From IMG/VR virus record IMGVR_UViG_3300037560_000082, positions 1 to 29,572 of that record: a DNA stretch of 29,572 nt. One strand, given 5' to 3'. The translations under genes were made by a program, and so were the position numbers. How positions within the stretch are numbered: the stretch's first letter is position 1; every line of letters begins with the position of its first letter. Below, piece by piece: positions 3-15,927 of this stretch. This DNA is from a virus. Lineage: Duplodnaviria; Caudoviricetes. The notes under the pieces are model-generated. The model searched no databases. It worked only from the letters and a program-made list of their open reading frames with translations, and had not been told where the DNA came from.

Positions 3-1835
3 CAGTGGTGCATCCGTGTCTTCCGGCAGGATCTGATCGATGTCCGGTATCCGCATGGCCTCGAACATTCGTCGATGCGCGATCTTGCGCTGCTTCTTCG
101 GATACAGCTCCGGATCTGCGGTGATCAACTCCAGCACTGCCTGGTTCTGTGCAATGCGTTGAGTCGCTGACCAGATGTTCGGATCCGAGACCGGGATGAT
201 GTCTACGCGACCATCGAAGTCCGACTTCAGGATCGTGCGTTCCTCACCCTGGACCTCGTAGGGATACTCCTCCACGTCCATGAACTCGTAGTTCAACTGG
301 GACATCATCTTGAACTCTTGCCTGGCAGAGACGTGCATGCGCTTGTGGATGCCGCTGAATACCTTCGAGCCCTGCTCGATCAGCGCCAGGGTCGTGCCCA
401 CTGGTCCAGTGTTCTTGGCATCACCAACCATGTTCTCAGTGGTGGTGGCGAATCGCCTGCCCTCATCGACGAGCGTCTGTACCAGGTTAGCGAGTGCAGT
501 CGATGGCTCCTTGACCGGCAGGTTGAAGAATGCCTTCTCCAGCTCGTCGGCGGACATATCGACATCGATCCACTCGCCCGGTGTAAAACGTATCTCCCCA
601 GCAATCTTGGCTTCTTTGCTCTTGAAGCCACCTTGAAGGTTTGCCACTGCTGCACTGTCGAGTAGGGCACGGATGCCGCCACTGACAGCTTTCGCTAGTG
701 AGCCAATTATGTGTAGCAGGCCAAAGCCATAGAAACCAAGGCCAGGGAGATACTTGTAATGCGTGAACCAGATTCGCTTCTTCATCAGCGGATCGTCGTG
801 CTTCCAGTTCCGCCTGACTGCCATGACCTCGCGAGACTCGGCCTCGACCGTGACGACATACGGAGGCGCTATGTCTGAGTCTTCGTCCCAGGGCATGTGG
901 TAATCGATGTGGTACTCCAGCATCGTGTAGATCGTGTCGTCGTAATGCTGCTGAGGACTGCGATCGTCGGCCACGTCCTCCAGGTCGTACCTGGAGAAGC
1001 TGGTGTTCTTGTCTACCAGGATCTGCGGTGTCGGCAACAGCCTGGCATCTGCAATGAAAGATCCCGCCTCCTGGGCCCTGAATACATCATTCTCCGGCAT
1101 CTCATATTTGTGACAGTACCGAGGTGCGTTCGCCAAAGTTCGCGCATGATACGGAACGATGAAATCCTCAGCAGTAACAAATCTGCTCGTAGTCATGCCG
1201 GTAATGGGATCGATGTAGACCTTCTTGAATGCAGATCCTGAAAGGGGGAGATAAAACAGCATCTGATCCGTGGACCAGAAGTATTCCTCGTCGGCTTCAG
1301 TGAGCTGATAGTTCATGTAGTCTTCGAGACGTTTCCCCTGCGCCACCTTTTCGTCGGTCGCCTCACCCATGATGTAAGCCTTGACCGGGCCCTGGGGCGG
1401 GAAGAATTCCTCAATCGCTCGTGCCTGGAACTGCGTCACAGCTTCAGCGATGAGTGGATGCTGCACGGTGGCCGCACCCTTGAACGGTACATCTGAGGCT
1501 GGCTCGTCGGTCAAGCCCATCAGCCTGAGCCCATCGGTCAGCCGCTCGAAATGCTCCTCGCGAACCTGCTCATCGATCTCGTAGTATTCGATCAGCTCGT
1601 CCGCGATTGCGATTCGTTCCTGGGGAGACAGCTCCTCTGCCAGGTTGTCGTTCCAACCCTCCGGTGTCTCCTCATCGTGATCAACGTCAGCGTACTCAGC
1701 GATCTCACCCTTCGGAACAATCGAGATCGTGCCATCTTCGTTATGCGTGATGATGTTCTTCGCGGTGACCTGCTCAGTCTCCGTGAAGGTCGGCATCGGC
1801 TTCATGGTCGATAAAAGATCCGCTCTGGCTGCCAT
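3..1835 (-). CDS. Phage portal protein (partial, runs off the left edge; absent from the ORF track)
   Basis: Manual translation from ATG 1835 gives MAARADLLSTMKPMPTF...NDNLAEEL...PFKGAATVQHPLIAEAVTQFQARAIEEFFPPQGPVK. The frame is still open at position 3 (...AMRIPDIDQILPEDTDAPL). Motifs match podophage-type portals as I recall them, and the gene lies downstream of terL. Confidence 0.85.
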   Translation of the reverse strand, partial: MAARADLLSTMKPMPTFTETEQVTAKNIITHNEDGTISIVPKGEIAEYADVDHDEETPEGWNDNLAEELSPQERIAIADELIEYYEIDEQVREEHFERLTDGLRLMGLTDEPASDVPFKGAATVQHPLIAEAVTQFQARAIEEFFPPQGPVKAYIMGEATDEKVAQGKRLEDYMNYQLTEADEEYFWSTDQMLFYLPLSGSAFKKVYIDPITGMTTSRFVTAEDFIVPYHARTLANAPRYCHKYEMPENDVFRAQEAGSFIADARLLPTPQILVDKNTSFSRYDLEDVADDRSPQQHYDDTIYTMLEYHIDYHMPWDEDSDIAPPYVVTVEAESREVMAVRRNWKHDDPLMKKRIWFTHYKYLPGLGFYGFGLLHIIGSLAKAVSGGIRALLDSAAVANLQGGFKSKEAKIAGEIRFTPGEWIDVDMSADELEKAFFNLPVKEPSTALANLVQTLVDEGRRFATTTENMVGDAKNTGPVGTTLALIEQGSKVFSGIHKRMHVSARQEFKMMSQLNYEFMDVEEYPYEVQGEERTILKSDFDGRVDIIPVSDPNIWSATQRIAQNQAVLELITADPELYPKKQRKIAHRRMFEAMRIPDIDQILPEDTDAPL

Positions 1836-4141: not shown

Positions 4142-4414
4142 TCAATCGTCGTGATACTGCCCAAAGTAGCGGTGATTGATGAAGCTGCTCGACCACCGTT
4201 GCAACCACAAAACCTGCTGCCTCGTCATGTCTGACCAGGTTGCCCACAGATACTGACCATTCTGGGCATCGTCTTCGTCCATTGCATCAGCACAGACCAC
4301 GATCACATGCTTGATCTTGCCGCGCTCTGCATCTGCCAAGCAGTCCCGCAGTATTCGCACTGCATCGAACTTGCCAGCCTCCAGCTCGTGGACATTCTTG
4401 ACGCTACGCTCCAT
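4142..4414 (-). CDS. Hypothetical protein
   Basis: 90 aa, overlaps the end of terL and is co-oriented with it. Confidence 0.65.
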   Translation of the reverse strand: MERSVKNVHELEAGKFDAVRILRDCLADAERGKIKHVIVVCADAMDEDDAQNGQYLWATWSDMTRQQVLWLQRWSSSFINHRYFGQYHDD

Positions 4415-5996
4415 AGAACTTCCTCGGTTGGCTGAACAGTTTCATCTCGTCCATCTTCTCGTCGTCGTCGAGTTCCATCAGGCCCAGGCGACGGATGTAT
4501 CCAAGCAACATCACGATGCAATCCACCAAGTCATCATTCTCACCGACCGGGAAGGTCGCGCACTGATTGATCACCTCGTAGGCCCAGTTCCTGGGGATGT
4601 ACCACAGCCGACCTTCCTTCAGCACCTGGGCAACCATGTGCGCTCTGAATACTTTGTCCTTGGTGCCTGGATTCACTCCCCAGATAGAAACGCCAGCTCG
4701 ACGCAGCTCCTGGATCAGTGAGTGACCGCTGGCCTTCCTCTCGATCAGCGTTCGGTCAGGGCTCCACTGAACATTGTGGGCTATCGCCTCGGTCTTGAGA
4801 TCAGGGAACTCCACTCGATCGTTGAACCGCTCCAGCAGCAACGCATGAACCTCGGTATCGATCTCCCGGCCTGACGGTGAATACTCGAACAGCCCAGCAG
4901 TGATCCTGGCAGAGCAGTCGTTCTCCTCATCCTCCTCGAATGCCGTGTCATAGAACGAGATGACCTCGATAAACTCTGGGTGTGGCATCGGCTTGCCAGC
5001 TTCCGGATGATCCTCTGGGAAGCACCACTGCTGCCACCACTTCTTCTTCAGGATCAGGCCACCACCGGATGTCGGATCCTGGTTGAACTGGGCGCTGTAG
5101 TCCCTCACGGACATTGCCTTGGTCTCGGCCTTCCTCTCCTCCTCACCAAAGCGTTGCGGATTCAGCAGCTCGCCTTTCTTCTCCCTGGGATCCTCGAACA
5201 ACGGGCCCTTCTTGGTCTGATGGCCCCTGCCCTTGTTGAAGAACGTGATGCACTTCCTGGCTGGATCGAACTCCATCGGCAGCATCAGCACTTCCCATCG
5301 CTCGTCTTCGCTGGCCAGGATGTGACCGAACAGATCAGCGTCGTGCGACCGCTGGCCGATCAGCACCTTCTGGCCTGTGGTTGGGTCGTTAAGGCGTGAT
5401 CTCAGGCTATTGTCCCAGGTCGAAAGGGTGTTGTACCGGATCGTGTCCGAGTACACGTCTTTCATGTTGTGCGGGTCGTCGATGCAGATCTTGTCGCCAC
5501 CTTCACCTGTCGCCTTACCCAGGATCGAGCCGGAGATGCGATGACCACCATGGTTGTTGACGTAGCGATTCTTCCTGTTGTCCGCTGGATCCAGGTAGAA
5601 GGCACCTGAATACCGCTGCTTGAACCAGGCTGACTCGATCAGCCGACGAGACTTTACTGCATCTCGGATAGCAAGTTCCTGAGCATAGGAAGCAAACAAG
5701 AATTGCACCCCAGGATCCAGCAGCCACTCCCATACCGGCCACAGCACACTCGCAGTCAGGCTCTTGGTCTGCCTGGGCGGGATGTTGATCATGAGATTGC
5801 GAATGTCACCGAACGTGACATAGGCGAGGTGGTCGCAGATGGCGTCTAAGTGCCAGTTGGTCTTGAACGGTTTAGGTTCAACGATCGACCAAGCAGCCGC
5901 TACAAATTCTCTCAGATCTCTCCGATAGAACTCAGCTTGGGCTTGAGTTTTGTACTCGGCTACTGCTTCCTGGACTGATAAAGGGTCTGCGACCAC
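4404..5996 (-). CDS. terL: Terminase large subunit
   Basis: ATPase motifs NWHLDAI, INIPPRQTKS (Walker A), ICIDDPH (Walker B) and IGQRSHDADL. RNase H-like nuclease motifs FYDTAF, IERKASG and DDLVD. Confidence 0.95.
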   Translation of the reverse strand: MVADPLSVQEAVAEYKTQAQAEFYRRDLREFVAAAWSIVEPKPFKTNWHLDAICDHLAYVTFGDIRNLMINIPPRQTKSLTASVLWPVWEWLLDPGVQFLFASYAQELAIRDAVKSRRLIESAWFKQRYSGAFYLDPADNRKNRYVNNHGGHRISGSILGKATGEGGDKICIDDPHNMKDVYSDTIRYNTLSTWDNSLRSRLNDPTTGQKVLIGQRSHDADLFGHILASEDERWEVLMLPMEFDPARKCITFFNKGRGHQTKKGPLFEDPREKKGELLNPQRFGEEERKAETKAMSVRDYSAQFNQDPTSGGGLILKKKWWQQWCFPEDHPEAGKPMPHPEFIEVISFYDTAFEEDEENDCSARITAGLFEYSPSGREIDTEVHALLLERFNDRVEFPDLKTEAIAHNVQWSPDRTLIERKASGHSLIQELRRAGVSIWGVNPGTKDKVFRAHMVAQVLKEGRLWYIPRNWAYEVINQCATFPVGENDDLVDCIVMLLGYIRRLGLMELDDDEKMDEMKLFSQPRKFYGA

Positions 5997-9500: not shown

Positions 9501-9937
9501 TTAGGTGCCTCCAATAATTTGTCACTCTGGATGTGTTCCAAAACTGTCTTCCCACTGGGCAGCATGATCTGTCCCAGGAATGCGCCATCGAATGTCAGGA
9601 TGCCGGTCTCGATTGCTGTGACCTGGCCCTTGATCCAGTCTCTGGCTACTGAATAGATCGCGACCGATCCTATCTCCATGGCCTTGCGCTCCCATTCGAT
9701 TTCAGTTGATAGCCTACGAGACGACCAGGGATTTTCGTCCAACCAGGCAGCAGCATATCCACGAAAGGAACACTTGATGGTGACCATGCGTCCCTGCCAC
9801 TCAAACTGAATGATCAGCTCTCCATTCCCATCGTCAACCATCGAGCCGAATTTGTTGCAGCCAAAATGCCGCAGAATCCTCTGGATGTCAGCCAGGGCTT
9901 TGGTGCCACTCGTGGCGCTGCTGTATGGCAGCTTCAT
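9497..9937 (-). CDS. Conserved phage hypothetical protein
   Basis: LPYSSATSG...DWIKGQVTAIETGILTFDGAFLGQIMLPSGKTV, a family I recall from proteobacterial phages. Confidence 0.75.
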   Translation of the reverse strand: MKLPYSSATSGTKALADIQRILRHFGCNKFGSMVDDGNGELIIQFEWQGRMVTIKCSFRGYAAAWLDENPWSSRRLSTEIEWERKAMEIGSVAIYSVARDWIKGQVTAIETGILTFDGAFLGQIMLPSGKTVLEHIQSDKLLEAPK

Positions 9938-10221
9938 GGTGCTGGATTCCAGCAGGTGACACGCTCATCGCCTTCCTTCAGATTGTGGATAGCCCACTCG
10001 CCATCCTGATAAGACGAATCCAGCATTGGTGTGATGCCATACTTGAAGCCCAGGTGATCGATCTGAGTGCCGTACCTGGTGTAGTCATCGATGTTGTACG
10101 CGAGGATCCTGGGTACGGTGCCTTCAGCCTGGACAAGCTCACAGGCTTCTTCGATCGACACCTCAGCGATGTCTGACGGTGTGGAAAGCTCGACGATCTT
10201 GCCGATCTCTGGCCTACTCAT
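9934..10221 (-). CDS. Hypothetical protein
   Basis: 95 aa, ATGA overlap with the downstream gene. Confidence 0.6.
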   Translation of the reverse strand: MSRPEIGKIVELSTPSDIAEVSIEEACELVQAEGTVPRILAYNIDDYTRYGTQIDHLGFKYGITPMLDSSYQDGEWAIHNLKEGDERVTCWNPAP

Positions 10222-10427: not shown

Positions 10428-10694
10428 CTACTCCTCTCCGATGTACTCCCCGCAGTGCGGACAGTCGAATCCTGGCTGCTGAAATTCAGCGTACTCCAGG
10501 ATCCCTACCCTGCAAGTGGGGCAAAAAGCCACCGGCAAGATTCCTATATTGCCCTCGCTCCCACCTTCCCTTTCGAGATCGAATGGGCCTCCACAAATAC
10601 TACACTCTCGAAGGGATTCAATTTCATCAGATGATGATCTTTCTGACTTTGAATGTACGGTACGTGTATCCGTCTTCTGTCTCGTCTTCGTCAT
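10428..10694 (-). CDS. Zinc-ribbon protein
   Basis: CSIC, CPTC and CPHC motifs. Start codon uncertain. Confidence 0.6.
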   Translation of the reverse strand: MTKTRQKTDTRTVHSKSERSSSDEIESLRECSICGGPFDLEREGGSEGNIGILPVAFCPTCRVGILEYAEFQQPGFDCPHCGEYIGEE

Positions 10695-10950
10695 CGAACG
10701 CTCTCCCCAAAACATTCCTGGCGACAATCTCCCTGGTCTGCCTCATCGACACGGCAAGAGCCCTTGCATACCGCTGACCCACCTGATCGTAAGCAATGGA
10801 CGCGCCTTCCTGTTTGACTGTAGCAAGACCGAATCCACCGCTGAGTTCGTGATGCGCTGCATCGTGAAGCAGTGTTGCTTCTTTCTTCGCAGGCAGGGCT
10901 GCCATCGTTGCAGCACCCAGCGCACTGACTATGAAATCACGCCTGTTCAT
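10627..10950 (-). CDS. Tat-like signal peptide fused to an internally deleted major-capsid-like fragment
   Basis: MNRRDFIVSALGAATMAALPA followed by LSGGFGLATVKQEGASIAYD and VGQRYARALAVSMRQTREIVARNVLGRAF, resembling Mu gpT-like HK97-fold capsid motifs as I recall them. Confidence 0.7.
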   Translation of the reverse strand: MNRRDFIVSALGAATMAALPAKKEATLLHDAAHHELSGGFGLATVKQEGASIAYDQVGQRYARALAVSMRQTREIVARNVLGRAFDDEDETEDGYTYRTFKVRKIII

Positions 10951-11164
10951 AGACACCATCCAGCCCACTCGGCGTTCCGTACACCGCTCGCCAGTCATAG
11001 TTGTTCCAGCCAGAGACTCGCATGGTCGCCTTGTACTTGATCGCAATAGCTTCGACGTTTTCCTCATTAAAATCCAGGCGCGGCATCGGGCTGGCCATCC
11101 GCATGCCGATCGCTACCGTCGCAACCGCGCCAGCAAAAGCTCTGATAAACCTCCGTCTGTTCAT
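10937..11164 (-). CDS. Tat-like signal peptide fused to a major-capsid-like C-terminal fragment
   Basis: MNRRRFIRAFAGAVATVAIG followed by DFNEEN...KYKATMRVSGWNNYDWRAVYGTPSG. Confidence 0.65.
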   Translation of the reverse strand: MNRRRFIRAFAGAVATVAIGMRMASPMPRLDFNEENVEAIAIKYKATMRVSGWNNYDWRAVYGTPSGLDGVYEQA

Positions 11165-11475
11165 CAACTTAGATCGACGGTCAACCCTGTCGCTGGTTTC
11201 GGTGGACTATCATCGATTACAAAGGTCTGCTCCGCTGGTCCGGACTTCCTCCCTGCTTGATCGACAATTTCCACTTGCCAGGCGTAAGTCCCATCCGCCA
11301 GGTCTGGAAGCAGATGCGAATTACCTGGTGACGGAACTCGATCCATCTCGGTAAAATCCGGAGCGCCAGTGACCTTGAGCGATATGATACTTTCTTTAAT
11401 CGCAGTCTCTGGCAAAGGATTATTGCTTTCTCGCTCTGTGGGAAGTATCCATCCCAGCGTTGCGCTCATTGTCAT
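11164..11475 (-). CDS. Fibronectin type III-like protein
   Basis: SATLGWILP...PDLADGTYAWQVEIVDQAGRKS, ending in PPKPATGLTVDLS. SD GAGGAG. Confidence 0.7.
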   Translation of the reverse strand: MTMSATLGWILPTERESNNPLPETAIKESIISLKVTGAPDFTEMDRVPSPGNSHLLPDLADGTYAWQVEIVDQAGRKSGPAEQTFVIDDSPPKPATGLTVDLS

Positions 11476-11591
11476 TGTTCGCTCCTCGTTAATTCCACAG
11501 TCAGGCCAGTCGCTGGTTTCGGATTCTGCCTGGTATCAGGTGGCTTTTTTCTCCAGCGATTCCACCATTTCTTGATGCACTTCAGCCACAT
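11472..11591 (-). CDS. 39-aa peptide sharing PKPATGLTV(E/D)L with the neighbouring FN3 protein
   Basis: Manual translation: MWLKCIKKWWNRWRKKPPDTRQNPKPATGLTVELTRSEQ. Overlaps both flanking genes. Confidence 0.6.
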   Translation of the reverse strand: MWLKCIKKWWNRWRKKPPDTRQNPKPATGLTVELTRSEQ

Positions 11592-12178
11592 TTCGCTACG
11601 ACTGCTAATGGCTCAACATCGCCGTACCAGCTAACCGCTTCTCTCGGCACAACGAAATGATCCTTGACCATCTCGGTCTCCGTGCATGCTGTTCCGCCTG
11701 GCACTTCACCGACTGGCAGTAGCACAAATTTATTATTCTGAGCGATCACCTGGTAAGCCACCATCGCAACTGTCACCAGGTTATCTGGTGGCTGCGGCAC
11801 CATGATGATCATCTTGAATACTGGATTCGATGCGTCAGATGTTTGCGGATCAATGCTGTTGGCAGGATCACCTACGTTTATATGGTAACCAAGAAAGCAC
11901 CATCGACCAGGTGTCCAGATCGTGATGTCTGTCGTTTCACTCGCACCTGGCACTGTCGTCGGCACAAATTTTTCGAGCAACGGTTCCGCTGGTGTGTCAT
12001 CAGGATTGCAAGCGCCCCAGTTAATTTTCGTCGTCGCTAAAGATCCTGGACCTGCTGCCACGATCGGTGTCCCATCAACATTTTGCGTTGCGTTCGTCCA
12101 TTCCAGGTTGACGATAGCAGCCCCGCTAGTGGCTGATAATACTAGCAAAATCAGTGGTATAAATCGTTTCATATCCAT
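11582..12178 (-). CDS. Secreted FN3-like protein with Sec signal peptide
   Basis: MKRFIPLILLVLSATSGA signal, then VNLEWTNATQNVDGTP...PGRWCF...SDASN, then PQPPDNL and a small Cys-containing C-terminal domain. Confidence 0.7.
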   Translation of the reverse strand: MDMKRFIPLILLVLSATSGAAIVNLEWTNATQNVDGTPIVAAGPGSLATTKINWGACNPDDTPAEPLLEKFVPTTVPGASETTDITIWTPGRWCFLGYHINVGDPANSIDPQTSDASNPVFKMIIMVPQPPDNLVTVAMVAYQVIAQNNKFVLLPVGEVPGGTACTETEMVKDHFVVPREAVSWYGDVEPLAVVAKCG

Positions 12179-12345
12179 CTCCTTCGTTTCAATTTCATGT
12201 CGCCGCGCCCAAGGGCCTTCGTGTTCTTCATCTGAAGGGCACGGCTTGTCCGTTTGGCCCCATTGAATGTGTCGTAAACCTCAGCGTCTCCAGTTTCCAG
12301 ATCGAGGATGCGTCGTCCGTTACGCTCCCACCTCTGTTCAACCAT
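12169..12345 (-). CDS. Small basic hypothetical protein (58 aa)
   Basis: Manual translation: MVEQRWERNGRRILDLETGDAEVYDTFNGAKRTSRALQMK... Fills the gap with overlaps. Confidence 0.55.
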   Translation of the reverse strand: MVEQRWERNGRRILDLETGDAEVYDTFNGAKRTSRALQMKNTKALGRGDMKLKRRRWI

Positions 12346-13039
12346 GCCGGAACAATTCCTCCTTGGTCGAGTGAATCATCGGCACAGCAAAAACGTCCAC
12401 GTCCATCTCCTCAGTCTCAAAGATCGGATCGTAGGTACGTACACGATCATCGAGCCTGGCATCTTTTATCCCAAAGCCATAATCGCCATTGATGATGTGA
12501 GGGCCACCTTCGACTTGAAGTGCAGCGAAACCCTGGCTCATCGCAATAACTGAGCAAGCCTGCATCGCTTCATCGTTATCTTCAACGACGCCGACTTCAA
12601 CAATGGTCTGGTGCGAGACCTCCTTGGTATTATTCCAGGGCCATCGCTCGTCTTCGGCGCATACGAATAACCGCTCTGTGTTCTTCATCTGAGATAGGCG
12701 CGGACCAATGCGCGGACCAATGCGCGGACCAATGCGCGGACCAACCTGAATTTGTTTCTCGGTCTCGACCAGCTCACCGAATGCTCGCTGCATCAGCTCA
12801 CTGGGATCCATCAGCTTCCACGATTCAGGATCATGGAAATCAGTTTGTTCAAACAGTTGAACATCCCAGGGCTTGGCAGTATCGATGCCGTAGAAGTATT
12901 TTTCGGTGGCCTGTTCGTACCTCCAGGTGCCACCTCGAAGGGTATCTGGCAGGAACTTGGGAGCCAGGCGCGTAGCGATGGCGACTGTGGCCATGGCGCA
13001 TGCCAATCCCTCAAAAAACGCTCTCCTGGTGAGCTTCAT
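12338..13039 (-). CDS. Tat-like signal peptide protein with (GPRI) repeat
   Basis: MKLTRRAFFEGLACAMATVAIATRLAP. The N-terminus resembles that of 10937-11164. Confidence 0.7.
   Translation of the reverse strand: MKLTRRAFFEGLACAMATVAIATRLAPKFLPDTLRGGTWRYEQATEKYFYGIDTAKPWDVQLFEQTDFHDPESWKLMDPSELMQRAFGELVETEKQIQVGPRIGPRIGPRIGPRLSQMKNTERLFVCAEDERWPWNNTKEVSHQTIVEVGVVEDNDEAMQACSVIAMSQGFAALQVEGGPHIINGDYGFGIKDARLDDRVRTYDPIFETEEMDVDVFAVPMIHSTKEELFRHG
12698..12744. repeat. 12-bp tandem repeat (GCGCGGACCAAT) x3.9, in frame
   Basis: Read directly. Encodes GPRIGPRIGPRIGPR. Confidence 0.95.
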
Positions 13040-15182: not shown

Positions 15183-15241
15183 CTGCTCCTTGATGACTAT
15201 ACCCTCAGCGAAAGACTACGATAAAAAGGCAGAAATCTCAA
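15183..15241 (-). promoter_or_regulatory. sigma70-like promoter plus leader motif for the accessory cassette
   Basis: TTGAGA-N17-TAGTCT-N8-GGGTATAGTC-ATCAA-GGAG on the minus strand. Confidence 0.6.
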
Positions 15242-15927
15242 TCGACTCGGTGCGATTCCCCTTCGATTGCTCTGGCCTTCGAGGCTTTCTGCTGAATACC
15301 TTCCAGGGTCTTGATGACAAGCTCCAATTCGTCTTGCGGCAAGGCGCTGAAGTCCAGGGATCTCGCCTGGCTCTGACGCATATTGAGATCCAGCATCAGC
15401 TTCTCTGAGAACATGCCCAGGTGCCGACCCAGGTTTACCAGGGCACTGGCCTTGTCATGCAGCACATATTTGAAATCGAAATCAGGGCCATCATCCGTCT
15501 GGATCAGATGGCTCTCCCAGGATGCAACAGCCAAAGCCTGGGAATCAGTCAGCTCGTTTACCGGCCTACCGATAAGATGCAGCACTTTATCCACCTTCAC
15601 GACTCGGATGTAATCCTTGATGTTCTGAAGACCGATCGCTGACATCTCATGCAGGATCCTGGTCGTCGTCGCATCGTAGTGGATCGCCGCCACCTCATTC
15701 TTTTTCTCCTGGAGAAATGCCATGAACGGTCGAAGATTGGCAGCCAGCTCGTGAGATCTAACCTTCGAGCTGTTCTTGGCGTAGCCAGCAGCGATCATTG
15801 CCGCATGTGGATTCATTGCCTCTTGAACTACGTTCAGAGCAAAGTCCAGTTGCAGTTTAGTTCGTGGCCAGCCTCTGGTGTTGCCTGGGATTACTTCGAT
15901 TGCTTCCGCTGGGGCGCTCACGCACAT
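15238..15927 (-). CDS. terS: Terminase small subunit
   Basis: HTH-like AAMIAAGYAKNSS, then ILHEMSAIGLQNIKDY and KYVLHDKASALVNLGRHLGMF, a typical TerS C-terminal motif. The true start may be GTG at 15921. Confidence 0.85.
   Translation of the reverse strand: MCVSAPAEAIEVIPGNTRGWPRTKLQLDFALNVVQEAMNPHAAMIAAGYAKNSSKVRSHELAANLRPFMAFLQEKKNEVAAIHYDATTTRILHEMSAIGLQNIKDYIRVVKVDKVLHLIGRPVNELTDSQALAVASWESHLIQTDDGPDFDFKYVLHDKASALVNLGRHLGMFSEKLMLDLNMRQSQARSLDFSALPQDELELVIKTLEGIQQKASKARAIEGESHRVD

Follow-up and report, generated by a model that had tools for sequence, protein, structure and literature searches.

The window analysed here, a 29,572-nt stretch of viral DNA, is a phage contig in which the portal and both the large and the small terminase are matched (Table 1), and the sequence of its phage is present in marine-sediment runs, the four best of which may be its source. 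Between the terminase genes, rather than in a head module after portal and scaffold, lies a short gene, mini-gene 1, that reads from an ATG at 10950 to a stop codon ending at 10627. The first-pass annotation had described this gene as a Tat-like signal fused to an internally deleted segment of a major capsid protein (MCP). All three peptides that it quoted are present in the ORF; a linker of 14–15 residues between the leader and the first capsid piece had been skipped. The DNA encoding the C-terminal tail overlaps a candidate start of the following ORF, which is read in a different frame. A second gene of the same kind, mini-gene 2, lies immediately upstream and overlaps mini-gene 1 by 14 nt, and its ATG is in turn overlapped by the stop codon of the Ig-like ORF. 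The labels N-arm, E-loop, spine helix and P-domain are our assignments, taken from a model of the MCP of relatives and from HK97 topology.

Table 1 Features of the window and of the two mini-genes.
Feature	Position	Strand	Description
Portal	3..1835	−	Cut by window end; phrog_1216, E 6e-30
Large terminase	4404..5996	−	Downstream of cassette; phrog_38, E 2.3e-72
ORF with MCP-like start	9934..10221	−	N-terminal stretch resembles MCP 159–175, not significant; piece known from some minis
Zinc-ribbon-like ORF	10428..10727	−	Usual downstream flank of cassette; cysteine-rich; weak zinc-ribbon matches only; synteny
Mini-gene 1	10627..10950	−	107 aa; Tat-like leader and reshuffled capsid pieces
C-terminal tail, residues 93–106	10633..10674	−	Likely relocated copy of MCP strand 77–90
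Capsid piece 2, residues 54–85	10696..10791	−	MCP 100–131, long spine helix
YD join	10786..10791	−	6-nt overlap of both capsid pieces (protein overlap)
Capsid piece 1, residues 38–55	10786..10839	−	MCP 52–70, E-loop region
Linker, residues 23–37	10840..10884	−	Contains LHDAxHH motif
Twin-arginine leader, residues 1–22	10885..10950	−	N-R-R-D-F-I, 16 uncharged residues, then basic
Mini-gene 2	10937..11164	−	75 aa; second Tat-like leader type and MCP C-terminal piece
Capsid piece of mini-gene 2, residues 34–65	10970..11065	−	MCP 270–300, last strand and DWRxxYG motif
Ig-like ORF	11164..11475	−	Constant upstream flank of cassette; Big_13, E 2e-5, below cut-off; synteny
39-aa ORF	11472..11591	−	Basic, Trp-rich start
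198-aa ORF	11582..12178	−	Signal-peptide-like start; no Pfam or PHROG match
Third twin-arginine-leader ORF	12338..13039	−	233-aa product without capsid match; conserved across relatives
Small terminase	15238..15927	−	PF03592, phrog_51; starts the same-strand small-gene block that holds the cassette

Several further ORFs surround this locus. The end of the 39-aa ORF repeats the last residues of the adjoining Ig-like ORF, and relatives carry short ORFs resembling it; homologues of the 198-aa ORF (35–42%) precede the cassette in relatives. When compared with 7010 ORF segments, the third leader-bearing ORF gave no non-family match under E 0.5. A short PW-containing stretch within it resembles a motif in portal-sized ORFs of other phages (E 0.6–4.5, not significant), and a four-fold RIGP repeat is found in its window copy only. 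Another twin-arginine ORF, of 113 aa, lies near the cassette at two loci (L003:11825-12166 (+) and L113:299-640 (−)), with no capsid match and no match among the compared ORFs. At the left end of the window phage's longer record, a 2814-aa ORF (G001:29-8473, L018) adjoins a lysis-like block, and a 5.8-kb viral contig has two MCP-like ORFs (L039:75-1013 and 4929-5768), perhaps through duplication or as a chimera. A scan for promoters and terminators stayed near chance (10 vs 6.0±2.0 and 6 vs 6.5±2.8). No RNA run was among the 24 runs listed as containing the sequence, which counts neither for nor against expression. As for the host, the join pattern had 0 matches in genome contigs, and a search by MCP led to 11 loci, whose MAG bins span mixed taxa and give no usable host.

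The capsid origin of the pieces is borne out by profile comparison. Aligned by hhalign with an MCP identified independently via Pfam PF10124, the 23-member mini family matches at a probability of 95.8% and E 7.2e-9, with a single gap at the join; alignment of the family to the 303-aa MCP of relatives shows two matching blocks. This PF10124-positive MCP, which also matches phrog_371, is found in 2/5 related mini-carrying phage records as well. When the window's 836 six-frame segments were compared with a profile built from 68 unique full-length MCPs, the mini-gene 1 frame matched best, at E 4.7e-17, a value that is inflated because 66 of the 68 were fetched with motifs of the mini family (at least 600 stretches, at least 439 of them related, best 80 kept). 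Next came the upstream ORF, mini-gene 2, with its capsid piece (E 0.0026, its homologues reaching 6e-7), and then the ORF with an MCP-like start (E 0.55). Both the hhalign test and the upstream-ORF match are free of the motif circularity, and independence thus comes mainly from hhalign. The capsid pieces of mini-gene 1 were undetected in sequence searches of Pfam, PHROGs, NCBIfam and the PDB, so that of the capsid-profile check proposed at first pass the direct match to PF10124 and PHROG profiles is negative, whereas the hhalign comparison with the PF10124-found MCP is significant. Nothing usable was found in the ESM Atlas, and a search for longer relatives of the mini scored 0 of 550 candidates, which is uninformative since full MCPs are in fact related. 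On sequence comparison, mini-gene 1 is confirmed as a homologue of the HK97-fold MCP family. The MCP of relatives is modelled at a pLDDT of 80.6 with a long helix (H99–127) and matches HK97-fold shells. In place of a complete, ordered P- and A-domain fold of ~300 aa, mini-gene 1 encodes MCP pieces 52–70, 100–141 and likely 77–90 within 107 aa, and its AlphaFold model, from a 23-row alignment, has a pLDDT of 50 and two helices with no confident fold; the predicted helix 57–84 in this low-confidence model covers capsid piece 2.

At the join, residues 38–56 align to MCP 52–70 and residues 54–95 to MCP 100–141, and the overlap of the two on YD upholds the proposed microhomology join. About 31 codons are absent between the pieces at the shared YD, a dipeptide that stands at both ends of this stretch in 32/68 MCPs, and DNA matches to foreign MCP genes stop and start at the six bases of the join. 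Contigs from runs of three other studies span it gap-free, with 6, 8 and 17 differences, and the join is therefore not an assembly error. The description as an internally deleted segment stands in part: the codons are missing, but one strand of the lost portion apparently turns up again at the C terminus. For the tail, the best ungapped placement falls at MCP strand 77–90 in 506 of 1360 tail–MCP pairs, which are non-independent, compared with 24 of 3000 shuffled tails, and the tail is likely a copy of that strand, relocated.

The leader of mini-gene 1, NRRDFI followed by 16 uncharged residues, conforms to the Tat motif, and its R3, R4 and F6 are nearly invariant in the mini family. Its match to PF10518 (TAT_signal) has E 0.00081 and 19.7 bits, below the cut-off of 22.7; TIGR01409 leaves mini-gene 1 unmatched, passes the homologue P0025 (23.9 vs 16.7) and gives the leader of mini-gene 2 16.6 bits against a cut-off of 16.7. 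A TatFind-like rule is passed by 19 of 23 family members, the rest being two without an N-terminus and two with 11 residues. The claim of a Tat-like signal thus stands for the conserved twin-arginine motif and uncharged stretch and falls short of the curated PF10518 cut-off. Derivation of the leader from the MCP N-terminus (MNRSDF vs MNRRDF, as aligned by hhalign) found no support in an ungapped comparison with 68 MCPs and was set aside. An AxA motif occurs within residues 15–35 in 46 of 93 clusters and a lipobox in 0/93. Given the Tat pattern, the AxA motifs and the secreted-looking ORFs that flank the cassette, the product might be an exported signal or surface bait whose capsid peptides act on periplasmic or neighbouring-cell receptors. 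We give this a very slim chance: no receptor gene is evident, AxA is missing from half of the clusters and a lipobox from all, and the pieces are too variable for one signal.

The locus is variable among close phages. In phages with portals 91–92% and terminases 86–95% identical to those of the window phage, one to three differently composed minis occupy the same place between the Ig-like and zinc-ribbon-like genes; their make-ups include the leader with an intact 77–132, the leader with E-loop and N-arm, and the leader with the C-terminus. Mini-gene 1 could have arisen by deletion at YD or by recombination between two neighbouring minis. It is one unit in a variable cassette of tandem, shuffled minis and not a single deletion of the phage's own gene, so that the first-pass interpretation is supported in part. 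At the cassette locus of one relative (L123:1369-1593 (−), G006) there is a leaderless mosaic whose N-arm piece is identical at 33/36 nt to that relative's own MCP gene; it also holds a WSDWR piece and, in place of the leader, a hydrophobic C-terminal stretch (KD19 2.11). No leaderless mosaic of this type was seen at the other loci compared. The mosaic indicates that capture is ongoing, that membrane attachment recurs and that an own-type piece is tolerated. We infer from the differing contents at one locus in close phages the pattern of an arms-race cassette.

Whose capsid the pieces resemble was assessed with a stand-in, as neither the window nor the matching 43.7-kb record extends past the portal, beyond which the phage's own MCP lies; we used the MCP of three close relatives, which is 96–97% conserved. 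In relatives the true MCP lies 13–16 kb from the mini cassette. The spine piece is identical at 23–24/32 positions to the best foreign MCPs and at 12/32 to the stand-in, and the E-loop piece at 14–15/18 and 10/18, respectively. For the spine piece the own-lineage MCPs rank 86, 92 and 94 of 105; the MCP pool was partly chosen by mini motifs, which biases these ranks and leaves the existence of much closer foreign capsids unaffected. At the 25 positions where pool and own type differ, the mini sides with the MCP pool in 15 cases and with the own type in 4, and a foreign MCP gene matches at the DNA level (76% over 72 nt, E 2e-6). The gap between foreign and own is smaller in some relatives' minis (17/28 vs 12/28, 14/24 vs 12/24 and 11/22 vs 10/22). 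Such closer foreign capsids argue against copying from the current own MCP gene and for an older or borrowed module. A single deletion of the phage's own capsid gene is contradicted by the near-bottom rank of the own-lineage MCP and by the shuffling of the cassette.

The likeness to foreign MCPs in protein and DNA also bears on function. In the main alternative to our favoured reading, the minis may poison co-infecting phages of the same capsid family: their pieces, which comprise the N-arm, E-loop, spine helix and P-domain strands, would swap into the folding or assembling MCP, and the leader would drag subunits to the membrane or out of the cytoplasm. Interference through capsid homologues, full-length in that case, is known from satellites, according to the accessible part of PMC8569155. 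We nevertheless hold this to be unlikely, if worth serious weight, since the recent own-type piece of one relative could harm its own carrier, a single assembly interface would hardly accommodate so many piece orders, and the foreign likeness may merely record the donor in an MCP pool that is partly motif-chosen. A crude motif scan, which found a recombinase in 0/4 incomplete contigs, adds a faint argument, as prophage-style standing protection is not indicated. The position of the mini, on the same strand as the terminase genes on either side, would suit a helper in the phage's own head assembly, either a membrane tether or a chaperone-like partner of the procapsid. An own-procapsid tether, which the first-pass annotation had put forward together with decoy and poison, is disfavoured because the pieces are foreign-like and variable, with contents that differ between phages whose MCPs are 96–97% alike, and because minis are optional: 5/5 near-complete phages of the capsid family had an MCP match only. 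Such a helper is very improbable.

The mini family is real, selected and widespread. A first search scored 23 of 32 candidates, including the query, and 19 of these align near full length at 59–88% identity. An exhaustive search returned 248 clusters at E <= 0.001, and the best 150 of them include 92 short ones with a Tat-like leader, 89 of which carry an MCP piece; genes joining a Tat leader to a capsid fragment, for which the first-pass annotation had suggested looking, thus occur repeatedly. The leader stands at the start of 90/100 short matches and 0/31 long ones. Because the search profile held the leader, E-loop and spine, the shares of these are inflated; the N-arm, strand 77–90, 159–180 and C-terminal pieces lie outside its capsid part. 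MCP 181–230 was never found in minis among the best 150 of 248 clusters. PF10518 had no match in 5 phage records with foreign capsids, the model being insensitive to mini leaders. At least 14 piece orders are present in the 89 leader-plus-capsid clusters, so no single folded product appears to be conserved, which fits linear motifs. Several non-capsid elements recur as well: the LHDAxHH motif in 23/124 leader-bearing minis and 0/68 MCPs, and an SGEGARR tail in 7/124 minis (P0025, P0038, P0043, P0055, P0075, P0083 and P0095) and 0/68 MCPs, perhaps a conserved DNA element or overlap. A DGVxL..HP linker, found in 17/124 minis (P0013, P0022, P0023 and others), resembles MCP 138–148, which suggests that some 'linkers' are also capsid pieces.

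Mini-gene 1 is under purifying selection and is no remnant, its capsid part being constrained as much as the leader. Over seven DNA copies (21 non-independent pairs, two of them saturated), pooled dN/dS is 0.23 for residues 38–85 and 0.25 for the leader, compared with 0.12–0.45 for neighbouring genes, and the 95% codon bootstrap interval of the uncorrected pN/pS (0.38; 0.26–0.52) excludes 1. Of 21 positions at which MCPs are >=80% conserved, the family keeps 19, and rho is 0.56 when 48 positions are compared. With these values, a frame open in 7/7 copies and 19 near-full-length homologues, the view that the gene is repurposed rather than decayed is supported, and the neutral remnant held out as the alternative does not fit a dN/dS of 0.23. 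Neutral debris from recombination in a high-turnover region could account for joins at short homologies and for the loss of the mini-gene 1 tail in one relative; it has next to no probability, as the other two forward frames hold 1–8 stops each, about 89 clusters share the design (best 150 of 248) and selection has already largely refuted it.

RRxF is the sole constant of the minis, with F after RRx in 91/93 clusters, and the third and fourth leader-bearing ORFs of the lineage have no capsid match. The leader itself might therefore be the effector, occupying or jamming the TatBC receptor or disturbing the membrane, with the capsid pieces as a stable carrier; that Tat quality control rejects unfolded passengers, as stated in the accessible text of PMC9251779, would suit this. 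It is nonetheless improbable. The capsid pieces are equally selected and retain capsid-invariant residues, capsid motifs would not have to be captured time and again just to supply a carrier, and one mosaic has no leader.

Capsid proteins are hard to mutate and are a main trigger of bacterial immunity, and the escapes from capsid sensing that are known to us are point mutations or unrelated inhibitors. Our favoured reading, with a probability of roughly 40%, is that the mini serves as a membrane-held, non-activating decoy for capsid-sensing defences. Presumably made late, alongside the surrounding packaging genes, it would bind capsid-sensing immune proteins without activating them; through its leader, the complex would be retained at the inner membrane or passed out via Tat. 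Several sensors require the complete fold or two separated sites, neither of which isolated motifs could offer, and binding would therefore be non-productive. Family-consensus motifs may be bound by the sensor in preference to the more diverged MCP of the phage itself, and the leader would have the further effect of keeping the pieces out of that phage's shell assembly. New minis would arise by short-homology recombination with MCP genes and neighbouring minis, yielding a changing repertoire. The selection, the 14 or more piece orders, the lack of a confident fold, the variable cassette and the ongoing capture all fit a decoy.

The accessible parts of the literature describe sensors of both kinds. 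The MCP is sensed by Avs7/8/10 via the whole fold and by Lit and CapRel via short motifs (PMC13581612; PMC9712102), and a Thoeris sensor binds the E-loop first and requires a distant P-loop, ~60 Å away, for activation (PMC12578639). Tat, for its part, rejects unfolded passengers and can co-export partners (PMC9251779, in the sections available). Other considerations weigh against a decoy. In the accessible text of PMC13581612, Avs7 engages mainly the A-domain together with the whole fold, and this counts against the decoy since minis almost never carry MCP 181–230. A mini fully exported to the periplasm would miss cytoplasmic sensors, and a sensor that reads motifs could be activated, not blocked, by a short stretch of MCP. 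The residues conserved in the minis are ones that capsids keep because of their own packing, a pattern also in line with binding to MCP, and foreign-like pieces are predicted directly by a poison of competitors. It is possible, though on balance doubtful, that the phages maintain a combinatorial library of capsid epitopes that renews itself: copies of conserved motifs, taken from capsid genes of their own and of other phages, would be shuffled and given a Tat leader, and Tat would pin to the membrane or export the caught sensors or rival subunits.

If the minis are decoys, they would represent a counter-strategy unlike known escapes and would reveal the capsid surfaces that sensors read; if they poison rival capsids, they are a new phage-versus-phage weapon. 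Being invisible to Pfam and PHROGs, minis receive wrong names or none in annotation, and each is small enough for direct trial against published MCP-sensing systems. No description of Tat-leader capsid-fragment genes was found in the literature searched, mostly the main texts of open-access papers, and the accessible part of a 2026 anti-defence overview (PMC13728456) contains no such design.

Several known systems are close to the minis. With Tat signal peptides (PF10518, TIGR01409) and small Tat substrates the leader shares RRxF, the 16 uncharged residues and the basic residues that follow; unlike known Tat substrates, the minis lie below curated cut-offs, are phage-encoded and have a passenger without a predicted fold, and export is putative. 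The capsid pieces belong with the donor group PF10124/PF25209/phrog_371, that of Pelagibacter phage HTVC023P, Roseobacter phage CRP-901, phage DSL-LC04 and Caulobacter phage RW; the MCP of relatives is 55–56% identical to the HTVC023P and CRP-901 capsids and folds like HK97. Compared with these MCPs, a mini has ~60–75 of 300 residues, in changed order, without an A-domain or predicted fold; being fragmentary, out of order and without an A-domain, it cannot be a shell protein. The MCP-sensing defences CapRel, Lit, Avs7/8/10, Dsr1 and Thoeris ThsB1/B2 define the pressure that a decoy would answer, and are themselves host sensors, one Thoeris system having the E-loop as its first binding site (PMC12578639); the accessible text on these defences (PMC9712102, PMC13581612, PMC12578639) describes no capsid-fragment decoy. 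A further counterpart is Ccm of the satellite SaPIbov5, which redirects helper assembly and, as proposed for the mini, is a capsid-derived gene reused for conflict. In the accessible part of its description (PMC8569155), Ccm is a full homologue built into pentamers, whereas the mini is fragmentary, shuffled and leader-tagged rather than a full-length, shell-incorporated satellite homologue of MCP. Unlike the Ccm satellite, phages with minis have genes for terminase and portal, and for an intact MCP wherever that region is sequenced. What the window newly contributes is a cassette of shuffled minis in tandem at one fixed locus, together with the probably relocated strand and the foreign-like pieces; a relative adds an own-type piece that was captured recently and has another kind of membrane tag.
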